Assembly (NCBI GenBank): GCA_000995965.1
Contig: LBYD01000002.1
Location: 199,889 to 263,888, forward strand
Source of the DNA: Candidatus Moranbacteria bacterium GW2011_GWC2_40_12
GTDB lineage: Bacteria > Patescibacteriota > Minisyncoccia > Moranbacterales > UBA11712
DNA length: 64,000 bases
Direction of reading: 5' to 3'
Position numbers and translations under genes: made by a program. This document shows, in pieces, positions 8,061 through 36,314 of the stretch. The notes below the pieces were generated by a model. It was not told where the DNA came from. It saw nothing but the letters and a program-made list of their open reading frames with translations, and did not search any database. Numbering within the stretch: the first letter of the stretch is position 1; the number at the start of each line of letters is the position of its first letter.

Positions 8061-10207
8061 TGGAAATAATCAAGGGCCTCAACGAACAGCAAAGGGAAGC
8101 GGTGCTCTCGACGGAAGGGCCGGTTTTGGTCGTGGCGGGTGCGGGAAGCGGAAAAACGCGGCTGCTTGTCCACCGAATCGCCTATCTGATCAAGGAGAAA
8201 AAAGTCAGTCCGCGTCAAATACTCGCGGTTACTTTCACGAACAAAGCGGCCGAAGAAATGAAAGAACGGATAAAGAAATTGCTGGTCGGCGATTTCCGTT
8301 TTCAGCCCTGGATGGGAACTTTTCATCATATTTGCGTGCGGATTTTGAGGTCCGAAATCGACAAAATCGGATATAAAAAAAATTTTGTGATTTATGACGA
8401 CTCGGACCAGCGGGCGCTGGTGAAGAAAATAATGAAAGAAAACGAGATCAGCGCCGAGCAATTCAATCCCCGGGCGATGCTGGCGGTGATTTCGAAAGCC
8501 AAAGGAGAGCTTATGAAAGTCGAGGACTACATTTCCGGCGAGAGCTACTTTGAAAGGATTGTCGCTCGGGTTTATGGCGCTTACCAAAAAAATCTTCTCG
8601 AGAACAACGCCCTTGATTTTGACGATATTTTGCAAAAAACAGTCGAACTCTTTCAAAAATTCCCTGATATTCTTGAAAAATACCAGAATGTTTTCCGCTA
8701 TATTCTGGTTGACGAATACCAGGACACAAACCAGGCCCAGTATGTTTTGGTGAATCTTTTAGCCCAGCGCCACCGCAATCTTTGCGTCGTGGGGGATGAT
8801 TGGCAGTCCATATACGCTTTCCGGGGAGCGGATGTGCGCAATATTCTTGATTTTGAAAAAGACTATCCGGAAGCAAAAGTCGTGAAACTGGAGCGGAATT
8901 ATCGCTCCACGCAGAAAATTCTTGATGCCGCCTACGGCGTCATTTCGAAAAATATCCGCCGCAAAGACAAGAAACTGTGGACGGATAACATCGAAGGGCA
9001 CGACGTGGTTTTGTACAAAGCCTCCGATGAGCAGGATGAGGCTGGTTTCATCATTCGCGAAATTCAAAGAATCGTTGAAGAAGAAGGTTTGAGTCTCGAT
9101 GATTTTGTGGTTCTATACCGTACCAATGCCCAGTCGCGGGCTATCGAGGAAGCTTTTCTCGAGTCGGCCGTTCCGTATCGAGTGGTTGGCGGCGTGCGTT
9201 TTTATGAGCGGCGGGAGATCAAAGACTTTTTGGCGTATTTGCGGTTTATAAGCAATCCTACTGACGAAATCAGCCTTGGAAGAATCGTCAATCTTCCGCC
9301 GCGGGGGATTGGGAATATTACGCTGGGGAAGTGGATAAGATTCACTCGGGAAAACAATCTTGATTTTGTGGCTTCAGCAAAAAAAACGGGTGACATTTGC
9401 GGTCTCAATGGGGCGAAAATGGACGCAATTGCAAAATTCGGAGCACAAATTGAGCGGCTGAGGAGTGAAGCCGGACGCGCAACGATCATTGATCTTATGG
9501 ATTCGATTCTGACAGAAACGGGATATCAAAAATTGCTGCTCTCTGAGGGTGAAGTGGGGCAAATCCGGTTTGAAAACGTCCGGGAACTGTTCACGGTGGC
9601 GGAAAAATACAAAAAAGAGGAAGGCCTTGAGGGACTCAATATGTTTTTGGAGGAAGTGGCGCTGATGGCCTCGACGGATAATATTGATTCAAAATCAGGC
9701 CTGGTGCATCTGATGACGCTTCACAGCGCAAAGGGACTCGAATTCAACACGGTTTTTATTGCTGGCATGGAAGAGGGCTTGTTTCCGCACTCAAGAGCGC
9801 TTCTCGATGAAAGAGAGCTCGAAGAGGAAAGAAGGCTCGCTTATGTCGGCATCACGAGGGCCAAAAAAAGAATTTATCTTCTTTGGGCGACAACGAGGAA
9901 CATTTTCGGGTCAACAAGGGTGAATGTCGCCTCGCGTTTTTTGGATGATATCCCAGCTGAGCTAAAGGCCGACTTTGAGGAATTTCGCGCTTTCCCAAAA
10001 GTGCGAAAGGGAAAAGCCGGACTTTTTGAAGAAAAAAAGGAAAAAAGCTTAGCTTTGGAAAAATTCAAAGACGGAGAAAGAGTCAGGCACTCTATATTCG
10101 GAGAAGGCATTGTGATTTCCACAAAGGATGACATTGTCACAGTCGCTTTCATGAAAGAGGGACTCAAAAAAATTTCTGCCAAGTTCGGGAAATTGAAGAA
10201 AATATAA
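8060..10207 (+). CDS. pcrA: ATP-dependent DNA helicase PcrA/UvrD (SF1)
   Basis: 715 aa; GAGSGKT Walker A, DEYQDTN, VGDDWQSIYAFRGA and other UvrD motifs. Confidence 0.95.
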   Translation: MEIIKGLNEQQREAVLSTEGPVLVVAGAGSGKTRLLVHRIAYLIKEKKVSPRQILAVTFTNKAAEEMKERIKKLLVGDFRFQPWMGTFHHICVRILRSEIDKIGYKKNFVIYDDSDQRALVKKIMKENEISAEQFNPRAMLAVISKAKGELMKVEDYISGESYFERIVARVYGAYQKNLLENNALDFDDILQKTVELFQKFPDILEKYQNVFRYILVDEYQDTNQAQYVLVNLLAQRHRNLCVVGDDWQSIYAFRGADVRNILDFEKDYPEAKVVKLERNYRSTQKILDAAYGVISKNIRRKDKKLWTDNIEGHDVVLYKASDEQDEAGFIIREIQRIVEEEGLSLDDFVVLYRTNAQSRAIEEAFLESAVPYRVVGGVRFYERREIKDFLAYLRFISNPTDEISLGRIVNLPPRGIGNITLGKWIRFTRENNLDFVASAKKTGDICGLNGAKMDAIAKFGAQIERLRSEAGRATIIDLMDSILTETGYQKLLLSEGEVGQIRFENVRELFTVAEKYKKEEGLEGLNMFLEEVALMASTDNIDSKSGLVHLMTLHSAKGLEFNTVFIAGMEEGLFPHSRALLDERELEEERRLAYVGITRAKKRIYLLWATTRNIFGSTRVNVASRFLDDIPAELKADFEEFRAFPKVRKGKAGLFEEKKEKSLALEKFKDGERVRHSIFGEGIVISTKDDIVTVAFMKEGLKKISAKFGKLKKI

Positions 10208-10453
10208 ACTATTTTTACTTTAAATAAGGCAAATTATTGGATTCGGAGATTCAAAAACTGGACAAAATTATAGAAATATGCTAACATAATCCGTTGGTTC
10301 TTTGTCATCCATGTTTGTGATAAGACGGGCATTTTGCGCGTTATTTTGGCTCTTAAAACGCTTGCCTCATAGAAGGGGCAAGTCTGTATCTGGCGGAACC
10401 AGAAGAATGGCGAACCCCATTAGGGAGAGCCTAAAAACCAAAGGAGGTCCGAT

Positions 10454-11227
10454 ATGGAAAGCCTGGTAAGAATTCCGCAGTCTGAGCTTAACGCAACACT
10501 GGAAAGGCTTAGCAAACTTGGTGTCACGCAAGAGCATTTCAAGCGTGTCCGCTCAAGCAGAAAATATGCTAAAGCCGTGGCGTCGGCATTTCTCGGCGAT
10601 GATGGTGTGGTGATGAGTTATAATGATGTTCGCACCATTCTCGGTCAGGATTTCATCACGCCCGAGGAAATCGCCATTGCTCGCAAGCTCACCTATGGCG
10701 ACGATGTGCTTCAGTATTTCACTGAAACGCTTCCGTCCGAGGAAGTGTTGCAGTGGCTCCGTGACAACGGCTTCGTGCTGATTGCGGGACCGCCCAGTCC
10801 GATGTCGCTCTTGGAAGTCCGCGACCTCAACGCCCAGCTCCTTTACACCAAGTCTGGCGGTTGGTATGCGGAAGCGAAGCAGAAATTCTCACGGGACGAT
10901 AAGGTGGTTTCTGAATGGCTTATGCTCCGCAAGGGCGTCGTGCCCAAATCCACGAGCAAAACGTGGGACGAACAGCAGAAGCTTCTTTCCGAGGCGGAAT
11001 GCGTTCCCAACGCTCCCGAAACGACGTGGGGCGAAACCACTTACAAGGAAGTCCGTAATGCGTGGCTGTTTCCCAGCATCTACGCCAGAACTTCTTCCGT
11101 GGACTCAGACGACAATCGCGTCTGCGTCGGCGATTCGGCGGGTGGCGGTGTCTACGTCGGCAGCGGCTGGGGCGACGACCGCCACGACGGCCTTGGTCTG
11201 GCGTCCGCTCAGAAACGAAACTCGTAA
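10454..11227 (+). CDS. DGR target protein (variable protein) with C-terminal variable region
   Basis: 257-aa ORF with a good RBS (aaaggaggt); the last ~40 codons (11095-11215) are a near-copy of the downstream TR with adenine-specific differences; GC (~52%) is higher than the surrounding genome; no signal peptide seen. Confidence 0.8.
   Translation: MESLVRIPQSELNATLERLSKLGVTQEHFKRVRSSRKYAKAVASAFLGDDGVVMSYNDVRTILGQDFITPEEIAIARKLTYGDDVLQYFTETLPSEEVLQWLRDNGFVLIAGPPSPMSLLEVRDLNAQLLYTKSGGWYAEAKQKFSRDDKVVSEWLMLRKGVVPKSTSKTWDEQQKLLSEAECVPNAPETTWGETTYKEVRNAWLFPSIYARTSSVDSDDNRVCVGDSAGGGVYVGSGWGDDRHDGLGLASAQKRNS
11095..11215 (+). other. DGR variable region (VR) inside the target gene
   Basis: 121-bp alignment to TR 11587-11707; 15 mismatches fall at TR adenines (to G, T or C), 1 T-to-G, 1 terminal G/A; the 3' 20 bp ccttggtctggcgtccgctc are identical (IMH-like). 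Confidence 0.85.
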
Positions 11228-11586
11228 CCTTGAAATCTTGTTCCTTTTGTATTCTTGAGCCTTCGGCGATTTTTTTTCTCGCTGGAGGCTCTTTTCTTTT
11301 GTCAAAAACACTGATAAGATAAAATCAATCTTGCTAATGCAAGTTAGGTTACGGCTTAACTTCGCGAGATGTCTTTTCTTTAGACCTTACCAGAATATCG
11401 TCGGCTACGGCTTGCGATAGCGTGCGAGCAAAGATGAGAGTTAATTTCTTGTTTGCTCTTAGTGGAGGTGTTCTGATTTTGTCATCGGAACTGCTCTCGA
11501 ATAAAATACAGGAAAGAGAGAATATAGTCCGCTTTTAGCGGAAGTAAATCTCAATTTCCAGTGGCTTTCAGACGGGAACAAACAAA

Positions 11587-11707
11587 TTCCGTGGACTCAG
11601 ACGACAATCACGTCAACGTCGGCAATTCGGCGAGTGGCGGTGTCAACGTCAACAACAACTGGGACGACAACCGCAACGACTACCTTGGTCTGGCGTCCGC
11701 TCGGAAA
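11587..11707 (+). other. DGR template region (TR), non-coding template repeat
   Basis: Direct repeat of VR, rich in AAC codons in the VR frame (NHVNVGNSASGGVNVNNNWDDNRND); lies between the target gene and avd, upstream of the RT. Confidence 0.85.
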
Positions 11708-11723
11708 TTATCTCAAGTCGAAA

Positions 11724-11756
11724 GTAAACGCTCTCCTTTTTTGGGAGAGCGTTTAC
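11724..11756. terminator. perfect hairpin (gtaaacgctctcc-tttttt-ggagagcgtttac) immediately 3' of avd on the minus strand and 3' of TR on the plus strand
   Basis: 13-bp stem with a 6-nt T/A loop, read directly from the sequence. Confidence 0.6.
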
Positions 11757-11757
11757 T

Positions 11758-12108
11758 TTAGCAGTCCTTTACGGATTTTATCCAGCCGCCGAGCATTCTT
11801 CCTATTTCATCCGTTTTTTCCTGAAGCAGGACATACTTTTTGCTGTCAATCGCTTTCACTTCTTTGGCAAGGCGGACAAAAATTCTGAAAAGGTTCAACT
11901 TCAAGCTGGCTTTTTCAAGGACTGGCAATTTTTCCACTTTGGACATTTGGCTGGCCAGCAGGATACTTTCCAGTGTTTCCAGCAAAATGTTTTCGCATTT
12001 CTGCCAGAGCGTATAGCGGTCTTGTTTGGGGACTGAATTTCTGAAGCTATAAAAGTTCCGATACAACTCGTAGATTTTTTTAAAGATCGGTATGTCAAAT
12101 TCTTCCAT
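11758..12108 (-). CDS. avd: Avd-like accessory variability determinant (four-helix-bundle protein)
   Basis: 117 aa from MEEFDIPIFKKIYELYRNFYSF...; basic helical protein of the 23S-rRNA-intervening-sequence/four-helix-bundle family that includes DGR Avd; adjacent to the DGR RT. Confidence 0.7.
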   Translation of the reverse strand: MEEFDIPIFKKIYELYRNFYSFRNSVPKQDRYTLWQKCENILLETLESILLASQMSKVEKLPVLEKASLKLNLFRIFVRLAKEVKAIDSKKYVLLQEKTDEIGRMLGGWIKSVKDC

Positions 12109-12120
12109 AGGTTTATTGTT

Positions 12121-13170
12121 ATGAAGATTTATAAAGATGTTTTTGAGAAAATAATTTCGCCTGAAAATCTTTTTTCGGCTTGGGACAATTTCAAAGTCGG
12201 AAAGATAAAAAAGAAAGATGTCCAGGCGTTTGAATCGAAGCTGGAACAAAACATTTTCCAGCTTCATCGGGAATTGAGGGGACGCTCGTATAGGCACGGC
12301 AGTTATGCCTCATTTTATATACGTGATCCGAAACAAAGACATATTCACAAAGCCGAAGTCAGAGACAGAATTTTGCATCATGCCGTTTTTTCTATCCTCA
12401 ACCCCATTTTTGAGGCAACCTTTATTTCCCATTCTTTTTCTTGCCGAATTGGAAAGGGAACGCATAAAGGCGTTATCGCTTTGGAAAAAATGATAAGAAA
12501 AGAGACGCAAAATTATTCCAGACGTTGCTTTATTTTGAAGTGCGACGTGAGGAAGTTTTTTGATACGGTTGACCACGGAATTTTGATGAGGATTTTGAAA
12601 AAGCGGATTAAGGACGAAAATGCACTCTGTCTGTTAAGAGAAATTATTAGCAGTTTTTCCTCCGAGCATTCGGACATTTTCACAGTCCGAGGTTTGCCGA
12701 TTGGCAATCTCACCTCCCAGCTTTTTGCCAATATCTTCCTCAACGAGCTTGACCAGTTTGTCAAAAACAAAATGCGTTTGAAATTCTATGCTCGCTATAC
12801 CGATGATTTCGTCATTGTCGGGAAAGACGAAAGAGAATTGAAAAATATGCTTTCGGAAATACGCTCATTCTTGAAAGATAGATTGTCCCTGGAACTCCAC
12901 CCGAAAAAAATCGTGATTAGAAAATATAGCCAAGGAATTGATTATCTTGGCTATATCGTTTTGCCTCACTATCAGCTACTCCGAACAAAAACGAAAAAGC
13001 GAGTGTTCAAAAAGTTGAAAATGCGGATTGGGCAATACAGGGCGGGGGAAATTAGCGAAAAATCTTTGAACCAATCCCTGCAATCCTATCTCGGCGTTTT
13101 TTCCCACGCCGACACGCACGAATTGGAGCAGGAACTTCTTAATCAATTTTGGTTTTGGTTGAATGAATAA
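12121..13170 (+). CDS. diversity-generating retroelement reverse transcriptase
   Basis: 349 aa; RT motifs including KCDVRKFFDTVDH and YARYTDDFVIVG (YxDD); DGR-hallmark motif LPIGNLTSQ ([I/L]GxxxSQ) replaces the group II intron QGxxxSP. Confidence 0.85.
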   Translation: MKIYKDVFEKIISPENLFSAWDNFKVGKIKKKDVQAFESKLEQNIFQLHRELRGRSYRHGSYASFYIRDPKQRHIHKAEVRDRILHHAVFSILNPIFEATFISHSFSCRIGKGTHKGVIALEKMIRKETQNYSRRCFILKCDVRKFFDTVDHGILMRILKKRIKDENALCLLREIISSFSSEHSDIFTVRGLPIGNLTSQLFANIFLNELDQFVKNKMRLKFYARYTDDFVIVGKDERELKNMLSEIRSFLKDRLSLELHPKKIVIRKYSQGIDYLGYIVLPHYQLLRTKTKKRVFKKLKMRIGQYRAGEISEKSLNQSLQSYLGVFSHADTHELEQELLNQFWFWLNE

Positions 13171-35946: not shown

Positions 35947-36314
35947 GCCGGGCTAGCTCAGTGGTAGAGCAGAAGACTGATTTTCGGTCCATTCCGCAGC
36001 GATGCGGAAAAGAAAAATCGGGTGAATTCGAGGAAACCTAATCTCCGACGTTATGTTGGAGCAGGGCAATCTCGAGCCAATCCTTCGCCGGGAGGCTACG
36101 GATTGCAAGCAAGCTAATTTTAGAAGGCTTGCCTGCCGTAGCTTTAGCGGAGGCAGGTGTAGAGACTAGCAGGTGAGTTCCAACAATAATCCTGCGCCAG
36201 CGCCCGACCGCTCCCTTCGCGAAGGGAGGGGATGAAATAGTCCGATCCTTGGGGAAACTCAAGCAAACGACGAGGAAAATCTTTGTGTGCCCAGTTCGAT
36301 TCTGGGGCCCGGCA
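35947..36314 (+). tRNA. tRNA-Phe (anticodon GAA) interrupted by a group I intron between positions 33 and 34
   Basis: Exon 1 is 35947-35978 (acceptor gccgggc, D-arm tagctcagtggtagagca ~ E. coli tRNA-Phe, anticodon stem gaaga, ct). Exon 2 is 36275-36314 (gaaaa-tcttt, variable gtgtg, T-arm cccag-ttcgatt-ctggg, acceptor gcccggc, a). The spliced loop is ctGAAaa. Confidence 0.75.
35979..36274 (+). ncRNA. group I self-splicing intron (~296 nt, no ORF) in the tRNA-Phe anticodon loop
   Basis: P1 with U.G at the 5' splice site (exon gacu / intron gguc); P7 halves gAGACUAg (36163-36169) and auAGUCC (36237-36243); terminal G before exon 2. Confidence 0.7.

Follow-up and report, generated by a model that had tools for sequence, protein, structure and literature searches.

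A diversity-generating retroelement of the Patescibacteria type in a Moranbacteria genome, with a conserved structured RNA next to its template repeat

Mechanistic knowledge of diversity-generating retroelements (DGRs) so far rests on one phage element, that of the Bordetella phage BPP-1, which comprises Mtd and Avd, along with a template repeat (TR) and the reverse transcriptase (RT) bRT (PMC6182149). In this system, the RT-Avd complex primes from the 2′-OH of spacer nucleotide A56, spacer nucleotides 53–56 pair with TR 118–121, and G117 is the first nucleotide copied (bioRxiv 10.1101/2023.10.23.563531). A duplex of spacer nucleotides 59–70 with the 20 nt upstream of the TR constitutes an essential stop, an Avd-binding stem-loop is found immediately 3′ of the TR, and the docking, priming and stop functions are located in the 140-nt spacer 3′ of the TR (bioRxiv 10.1101/2023.10.23.563531). 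Bacteria of the Candidate Phyla Radiation (CPR) are already known to be rich in DGRs. In the text of Wu et al. 2018 (PMC5758913), an arrangement called B3 accounts for 90% of their CPR DGR set, and Roux et al. 2021 (PMC8144416) described a DGR clade 2 that is restricted to Patescibacteria and whose targets typically have no recognisable domains. Here we analysed a stretch of 64,000 nt (the window) from the genome of Candidatus Moranbacteria bacterium GW2011_GWC2_40_12, public since 2015 (contig LBYD01000002.1, positions 199,889 to 263,888). We conclude that it very probably carries a complete chromosomal DGR of the CPR type, best explained together with the model of its template RNA proposed below. 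The layout of this element differs from that of the phage.

The two repeats of the element were identified by a repeat finder within the window. The variable repeat (VR, positions 11095–11215 of the window, plus strand) and the TR (11587–11707, plus strand) are 121 nt long each, 86% identical and offset by 492 nt, a multiple of three, so that the reading frame is kept. The tabulated alignment contains 17 mismatches in 121 positions, 15 of which fall on TR adenines (12 A>G, 2 A>T and 1 A>C). Altered in the VR are 15 of the 31 TR adenines and 2 of the 90 other TR bases (one-sided Fisher test, p = 5.6e-9). The TR contains seven AAC codons, and 29 of its 31 adenines are at codon positions 1 or 2. 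The VR encodes residues 214–254 of a target protein of 257 amino acids, in which the 19 adenine-containing codons (residues 217–246) permit ~1e16 protein variants without any stop codon. An initial annotation, made from the sequence and its open reading frames (ORFs), had proposed this repeat pair with the same mismatch counts, their enrichment at TR adenines, an AAC-rich TR and a VR at the 3′ end of the 257-aa ORF; our computation reproduced all of these, including the coordinates. A second VR was not found on either strand of the window.

The two mismatches at other bases are a T>G at TR position 11681 and a G>A at 11703. The former is probably an old A site, because the TR of a closely related locus (L004, see below) has an A where the window TR has a T; 16 of the 17 mismatches would then be A-derived. 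The latter (VR 11211) is private to the window VR and lies within the conserved 3′ end of the repeats. There, positions 11683–11702 are identical over 20 GC-rich base pairs, followed by the mismatch at 11703 and four more identical bases. The earlier statement that the last 20 bp of the repeats are identical is hence correct for the length of the identical stretch but not for its position at the very end. This stretch and a hairpin 42 nt past the VR may correspond to an initiation of mutagenic homing (IMH) site and its inverted repeat; the sole VR/TR difference there is the strain-private one at 11703. Related loci show a systematic difference near the repeat 3′ end, C in the TR and A in the VR, which is absent from the window. 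The TR had been described as non-coding; a 66-aa ORF (11561–11761) overlaps it and keeps the VR frame, and a gene caller called a counterpart in L004, but this ORF has no support as a gene.

The gene for the RT (349 aa, 12121–13170, plus strand) was assigned by its RVT_1 domain and by structure-database and motif matches. Its best match among solved structures is the Bordetella phage DGR RT (8ub7_A, E 2e-49, residues 4–338), with group II intron RTs at ~1e-25 (best 7e-26) in the same PDB search. RTs of the DGR lineage have IGxxxSQ where other RTs have QG, and a catalytic YxDD motif. The corresponding window motifs, IGNLTSQ (residues 194–200) and YTDD (226–229), are both invariant among the relatives, and >5000 RT proteins match the window RT at E ≤ 1e-60. 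Between TR and RT lies the accessory gene avd (116 aa, 11758–12108), on the minus strand and thus antisense to TR and RT. Its product matches the Pfam family bAvd (PF22296, 69.7 bits, cut-off 40) and the NCBIfam model ‘diversity-generating retroelement protein Avd’ (NF033474, 80 bits, cut-off 80), while its structure matches, to the Bbp7/Avd structures 4dwl and 8ub7_B, are weak. The genes avd and RT are divergent, with start codons 12 nt apart (12106–12123). The assignment of a DGR-type RT with the IGNLTSQ motif in the initial annotation thus agrees with the proximity to bRT ahead of group II intron RTs; the proposed Avd gene was also correct, although its minus-strand orientation had been overlooked.

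A different origin for the repeat pair would be an ordinary duplication that diverged by drift beside a group II intron, retron or defence-type RT. The top NCBIfam model for the RT is indeed that of group II intron RT/maturase, with 165 bits. This score is, however, far under the cut-off of 300, the retron and DRT models score still lower and also far under their cut-offs, and the Bordetella DGR RT is well ahead in the PDB search. A bona fide Avd is present, the significant adenine bias recurs in ~25 independent loci, and neither a group II intron RNA nor a retron RNA was detected with Rfam. Within the reach of sequence analysis, drift beside another kind of RT is refuted, and we attach next to no probability to it.

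The target gene (257 aa, 10454–11227, plus strand) encodes a variable N-terminal helical region followed by a C-type-lectin (CLec)/FGE-like domain. The structure was predicted confidently, and the model resembles the C-type-lectin/FGE fold of DGR variable proteins as well as many C-type lectins. Foldseek placed the same families at the top, though without significance. The predicted structure suggests that the target is a distant member of this fold with the VR located on the C-terminal strands. By sequence, the Pfam search assigned no domain in ~150 target homologs and no FGE-sulfatase or DUF1566 match for the target itself. The comparison with CLec/FGE target families that had been suggested therefore yielded a CLec/FGE-like predicted fold and no Pfam family match. 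The known DGR variable proteins of the FGE-type CLec subclass, TvpA of Treponema denticola and TaqVP of Thermus, are 10–13% identical to the target; compared with them, the window target has no visible lipoprotein signal, and its N-terminal helical part is different. As stated before for the signal peptide, no hydrophobic stretch was seen at the N-terminus, by inspection only, as no signal-peptide predictor was run. The apparent lack of an export signal bears on what CPR DGRs diversify. In GenBank, the protein is a hypothetical protein of Candidatus Moranbacteria, with exact matches KKR44174.1 and KKU00735.1 from metagenome-assembled genomes. Proteins of the target family occur widely in Patescibacteria, where their annotation is only hypothetical; based on the model, the family can now be assigned to the C-type-lectin fold.

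Next to the VR follows an element at 11229–11300 (plus strand) with three CTTG repeats (11229–32, 11237–40 and 11254–57), a 13-bp GC-rich hairpin (11257–11269/11279–11291; –22.9 kcal/mol, z –4.3) and a U-run. Almost all VRs examined in related loci are followed by such a CTTG array with a hairpin, also in loci with several VRs and in loci with an inverted TR module. Judged by its sequence, this element is a terminator of the target gene and corresponds in position to the inverted repeat behind the Bordetella IMH. In the stretch from the stop codon to the GC-rich terminator hairpin, the arrays typically consist of 3–5 CTTG(A) motifs at a spacing of ~9–10 nt. They were also seen in L010, L011, L017, L022, L027, L030, L031, L036, L040, L043, L046 and L048, but not after the third VR of L010. 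On the other side of the gene, an imperfect palindrome of ~50–60 nt lies ~80–130 nt upstream of many target-homolog starts (L011–L075; e.g. L031:3702–3752). It recurs in Patescibacteria loci with or without a DGR and is absent upstream of the window target.

The element is surrounded by genes for PNPase, an NYN-domain protein, ribosomal protein S15, a UvrD/PcrA helicase, a LysM-CHAP hydrolase and a XerC-like recombinase. The locus L004 encodes a target 82% identical to that of the window in the same gene neighbourhood, from which it follows that the element is chromosomal and inherited rather than phage-borne. All 16 VR/TR mismatches in L004 are at TR adenines. In a scan of one genome per species, relatives of the target turned out to be encoded at 69 Patescibacteria loci. 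In 25 of them the target adjoins avd and RT (in one case with only avd before the locus ends), and one more carries the leader RNA described below on a short contig. The 25 loci, the window and L004 yield 27 cassettes. In all 27, the module has the same order: the TR on the RT strand, a hairpin, avd on the opposite strand and the RT. The VR/TR pairs of these loci are 109–131 nt long, except for one truncated match, and the adenine-specific signature recurs in ~25 of the related loci, with A-site mismatches of, for example, 17/17, 16/16, 12/12 and 10/10. The entire TR-avd-RT module has the opposite orientation and sits upstream of the target in five loci. The RT-anchored loci described below likewise have a minus-strand avd upstream of a plus-strand RT gene. 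Multi-target cassettes, with two or three target paralogs whose VRs all match a single TR, were found in L010, L043 and L046. In L025, a second, partial avd and a TR-like copy lie upstream.

The order TR, inverted avd and RT appears to be the published CPR B3 architecture, as judged from the text of PMC5758913. Measured against what the accessible text gives for B3 and DGR clade 2, the window has a Patescibacterial host, a TR upstream of an inverted avd and a target without a Pfam domain. Like those DGRs, it is chromosomal, it has an order and orientation of avd and TR unlike that in Bordetella, and its short target contains no recognisable conserved or transmembrane domain. We noted no difference in the cassette itself; the RNA leader of ~260 nt described in the following is not mentioned in the accessible literature. 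As a DGR, the element thus belongs to the standard CPR form, which is known and abundant, and its proteins are already public. The complete DGR claimed initially is confirmed, while its identity as the standard CPR form had been missed. All four parts named at that time (target with VR, TR, avd and RT) tested positive, but the structured RNA around the TR had been overlooked.

In the gap between VR and TR (360 nt), the window and L004 share 95% identity, compared with only 82% for their target proteins. More distant loci align over the final ~260 nt before the TR, from a conserved AUCUUGCU onward. For this alignment, RNAalifold predicted 60 pairs in nine helices, with compensatory changes in 40 pairs. 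When the pairs were counted, 96.9% of the cells formed a standard pair as predicted, compared with 36–50% if the partners were slid by 1–3 columns. In 240 cells both sides of the pair had changed, and none of 500 shuffles reached the observed values. The frequent G-U pairs place the structure on the plus strand, the strand of TR and RT. We call this region (~260 nt, 11326–11586) the leader; its helices map to 11328–11585 in the window.

Two domains can be distinguished in the leader. Domain I (11326–11441, plus strand) contains the helices 11328–34/11364–70, 11339–50/11353–63, 11387–90/11424–27, 11396–99/11416–19 and 11403–05/11410–12. Domain II (11442–11586, plus strand) is enclosed by the outer helix 11449–60/11574–85, which stops 1 nt short of the TR, and contains the inner helices 11464–74/11487–97, 11511–19/11551–59 and 11528–30/11540–42. 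Its conserved loops include GAAUAAAAUACAG. A putative –10 box of a template-RNA promoter, TAAGAT (11314–11319, plus strand), was recognised by consensus only; almost all of ~50 loci have a TATAAT-like hexamer ~5–8 nt ahead of the leader start. As a further candidate for a TR promoter we considered TTGTCA-17-TAAAAT (11479–11507), which was dropped because this stretch is the conserved loop GAAUAAAAUACAG inside the structured leader.

We built two covariance models, R1 for domain II and R2 for domain I, which score 122.4 bits (E 1.7e-31) and 101.3 bits (E 1.5e-23) in the window, respectively. Searching the 604 kb of target-anchored loci, R1 gave exactly one strong match per DGR cassette, always abutting the TR and including three loci that were not used for model building. 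With the covariance models, the leader was found at 28 target-anchored loci, and R1 had no match in ~40 target-homolog loci without an RT. We also searched 80 metagenomic loci retrieved by RT similarity (48–78% identity). R1 matched 64 of these, and 14 of the 16 misses had no upstream sequence; R2 matched 53 of the RT-anchored loci, directly 5′ of the R1 match. Most RT-anchored loci have no detectable target homolog, hence the leader RNA goes with the RT/Avd clade and not with the target family. Three of the matches lie on the avd strand, opposite the RT (L129:2895–3008, L130:288–401 and L153:2963–3064), presumably together with their TRs. In L141 and L147, both RT relatives with upstream sequence, the leader was not detected. 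The closest metagenomic RT relative (78% identity; L076:134–563) has its domains I and II ~160 nt apart and a poor domain II of 57 bits.

In Rfam, no relevant family matched positions 11150–12200 at E ≤ 1, and no RT-1 to RT-19, group II intron or retron RNA reached the gathering threshold in the window. The families RT-1 to RT-19, structured RNAs conserved beside bacterial RT genes, were described by Weinberg et al. 2017 (PMC5737381) and are contained in Rfam. One of them, RT-10, sits in the TR-RT spacer of BPP-1, with a proposed role in priming (PMC5737381). The leader differs from RT-10 in its location 5′ rather than 3′ of the TR, in addition to the missing Rfam match. We found no earlier description of the ~260-nt leader, or of a ~440-nt template RNA containing it, in Rfam or the accessible DGR literature.

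A leader segment just 5′ of domain II, GAGUUAAUUUC (11438–11448, plus strand), pairs in a long-range helix with GAAAUUAUCUC (11704–11714, plus strand), which consists of the last 4 nt of the TR and 7 nt of the adjoining spacer. A near-invariant CUUG (11448–51) follows the leader strand of this helix. In a search limited to the tail, cognate duplexes had a mean energy of –13.0 kcal/mol versus –9.8 kcal/mol for non-cognate ones, with a mean z of –3.1 relative to shuffles. Unconstrained RNAduplex runs, in which the leader was searched over the complete TR and tail, were too noisy (cognate –18.4 versus non-cognate –17.7 kcal/mol), and the signal appears only in the tail-limited search or when read by eye across lineages. 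Compensatory sets from different lineages were observed for GGAUAGAG/CUCUAUCC versus GGAUGGAG/CUCCAUCC and also GGUAGGGA/UCCUUACC, and for GAGGAGA/UCUCCUC versus AAAGAGA/UCUCUUU and also UUUUAGA/UCUAAAA. At the TR end itself, the compensatory pairs are ACUAC/GUAGU, GCU/AGC and AUUUC/GAAAU, the last being that of the window. One mismatch within the long-range helix is retained in several lineages. The CUUG tetramer at the leader junction is the same tetramer as in the arrays after the VRs.

Downstream of the TR, at a distance of 14 nt, lies a perfect 16-bp hairpin (11721–11759; –28.2 kcal/mol, z –6.5) that overlaps the avd stop codon. A clear stem is present at this position in 26 of 27 related loci, each time with a different sequence. 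By analogy with Bordetella, this hairpin is a candidate for the Avd-binding stem-loop and/or for a bidirectional terminator.

From these elements we propose the following model. As in the Bordetella phage DGR, the RT-Avd complex would copy a TR-containing RNA into cDNA and insert random nucleotides opposite template adenines. The cDNA would then replace the VR and alter as many as 19 codons for the ligand-binding face of the CLec-fold target. The DGR RNA would be a unit of ~440 nt (roughly 11326–11760) transcribed from its own promoter. Within this RNA, the leader segment AAUUUC (11443–48), paired with TR 118–121 (GAAA) and the first two spacer bases, would act as the primer:template duplex, and cDNA synthesis would start near TR G117 (11703), primed from a 2′-OH near the invariant C11448-UUG. 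The chain would pass via the CUUG (11448–51) into the helix adjoining the TR, giving the same connectivity from primer to stop duplex as in Bordetella. This helix (11449–60/11574–85) would halt cDNA synthesis at the 5′ edge of the TR, like the Bordetella ‘cPRT Stop’ duplex. The 3′ hairpin would be the counterpart of the Avd-binding stem-loop and would also terminate avd and possibly the TR RNA. In this model, most of the elements located 3′ of the TR in Bordetella would here be found on its 5′ side. The RT may be expressed by read-through.

The comparison with BPP-1 reveals these similarities: the RT homology over the full length (E 2e-49), the presence of Avd, the adenine-specific mismatches, and a CLec-fold target with a C-terminal VR followed by an inverted repeat. 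In both systems a stem-loop lies just 3′ of the TR, a duplex closes the 5′ edge of the TR, and pairing joins the TR 3′ end to a distal segment of the RNA that is directly followed by one strand of the TR-edge duplex. The window differs in having a large structured RNA 5′ of the TR, where Bordetella needs only 20 nt, and in that the leader supplies both strands of the stop-like helix. Moreover, the element is cellular and not phage-borne, with a target that has no recognisable export signal. By analogy, we infer that the leader may be the rearranged equivalent of the Bordetella DGR RNA. Tentatively, and at a probability that we would put slightly below an even chance, we extend this to the Patescibacteria DGR clade as a whole, which would use a rearranged DGR RNA whose ~260-nt 5′ leader carries the RT/Avd-docking, priming and stop functions and represents a new RNA family.

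The leader might instead stand outside the working RNA of the retroelement. It could be a small RNA in its own right, could regulate TR transcription in a riboswitch-like manner or could form the 3′ untranslated region (UTR) of the target gene. Its link to reverse transcription was drawn from sequence only, its large conserved loops could bind a ligand or an unrelated protein, and a promoter-like box lies upstream of it. Yet the leader always abuts the TR on the TR strand, and it pairs with the TR 3′ end and the spacer with compensatory changes. It tracks the RT/avd clade across loci without detectable homologs of the window target and is absent from target homologs without an RT. In the inverted modules it moves with the TR, which argues against a 3′ UTR of the target. 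A separate role of the leader hence appears quite improbable to us.

Several observations weigh against a DGR working in the proposed way. The spacing of only 12 nt between the start codons of avd and RT leaves their transcription hard to place. Either the promoter of each gene is contained in the other one, or RT expression relies on read-through of the TR RNA across the antisense avd, which is possible. The primer:template-like pairing is mismatched in several lineages (U.C, C.C or G.A), and the automated search for such sites gave noisy results. The 3′ hairpin may have no function other than termination. Finally, an identical target protein, and hence the same VR, is found on 16 contigs (the longest of 482 kb), and the remaining members of its 90% cluster show an unchanged VR, one SNP at a non-A position, or a VR/TR chimaera and a deletion, both of which are most likely assembly artefacts. 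A different allele exists in GW2011_GWF2_44_10 (L002), whose sequence is identical to the window over 8454–11040 and 11212–11387 (2.6 kb upstream and 176 nt downstream). The 171-nt patch in between (L002:6588–6758 versus window 11041–11211) contains 42 substitutions. Of the 28 differences between the L002 VR and the window TR, 12 fall on non-A sites, and ten changes are located upstream of the VR/TR homology. These changes point to a different TR or to recombination (an allele swap) rather than to simple retrohoming from the window TR. Several of the non-A states in the patch match the TR of L004. All three contigs with the GWF2_44_10 allele end just past the VR, and the only RT contig recovered (L156) has the window TR and is not linkable to the strain.

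These findings could also be explained by a real DGR that is now inactive or very rarely active, with an effectively frozen VR and a cassette kept by inheritance. Besides the constancy of the VR in all assemblies of the population, this would be in line with the loss of one TR adenine (A>T at 11681) and with the private G>A at VR 11211 in the conserved 3′ end. The ORFs for RT, Avd and target are, however, intact with their catalytic motifs present, the leader scores (122 and 101 bits) equal those of other loci, and the TR keeps 31 adenines. The constancy of the VR is weak evidence, because consensus assemblies hide minority VR variants. We therefore regard dormancy as unlikely, albeit as an explanation to be reckoned with.

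With the leader, the long-range helix and the 3′ hairpin, the template RNA of the largest cellular DGR clade gains well-marked boundaries and a secondary structure open to testing. Should the priming and stop elements reside in the leader, the RNA scaffold of a DGR would be rearrangeable around its template, which would matter for the engineering of DGRs into tools for targeted mutagenesis. A minimal RNA (~11326–11760), the 349-aa RT and the 116-aa Avd would then be defined for reconstitution.

Elsewhere in the window, at 35947–36313, we noticed a tRNA gene that is Phe-like when its halves are joined and whose anticodon loop is split by a group I intron (Rfam RF00028, 35969–36264, 57 bits versus a gathering threshold of 50). 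This split gene is located between tRNA-Val and tRNA-Gly and was not called by ARAGORN alone.

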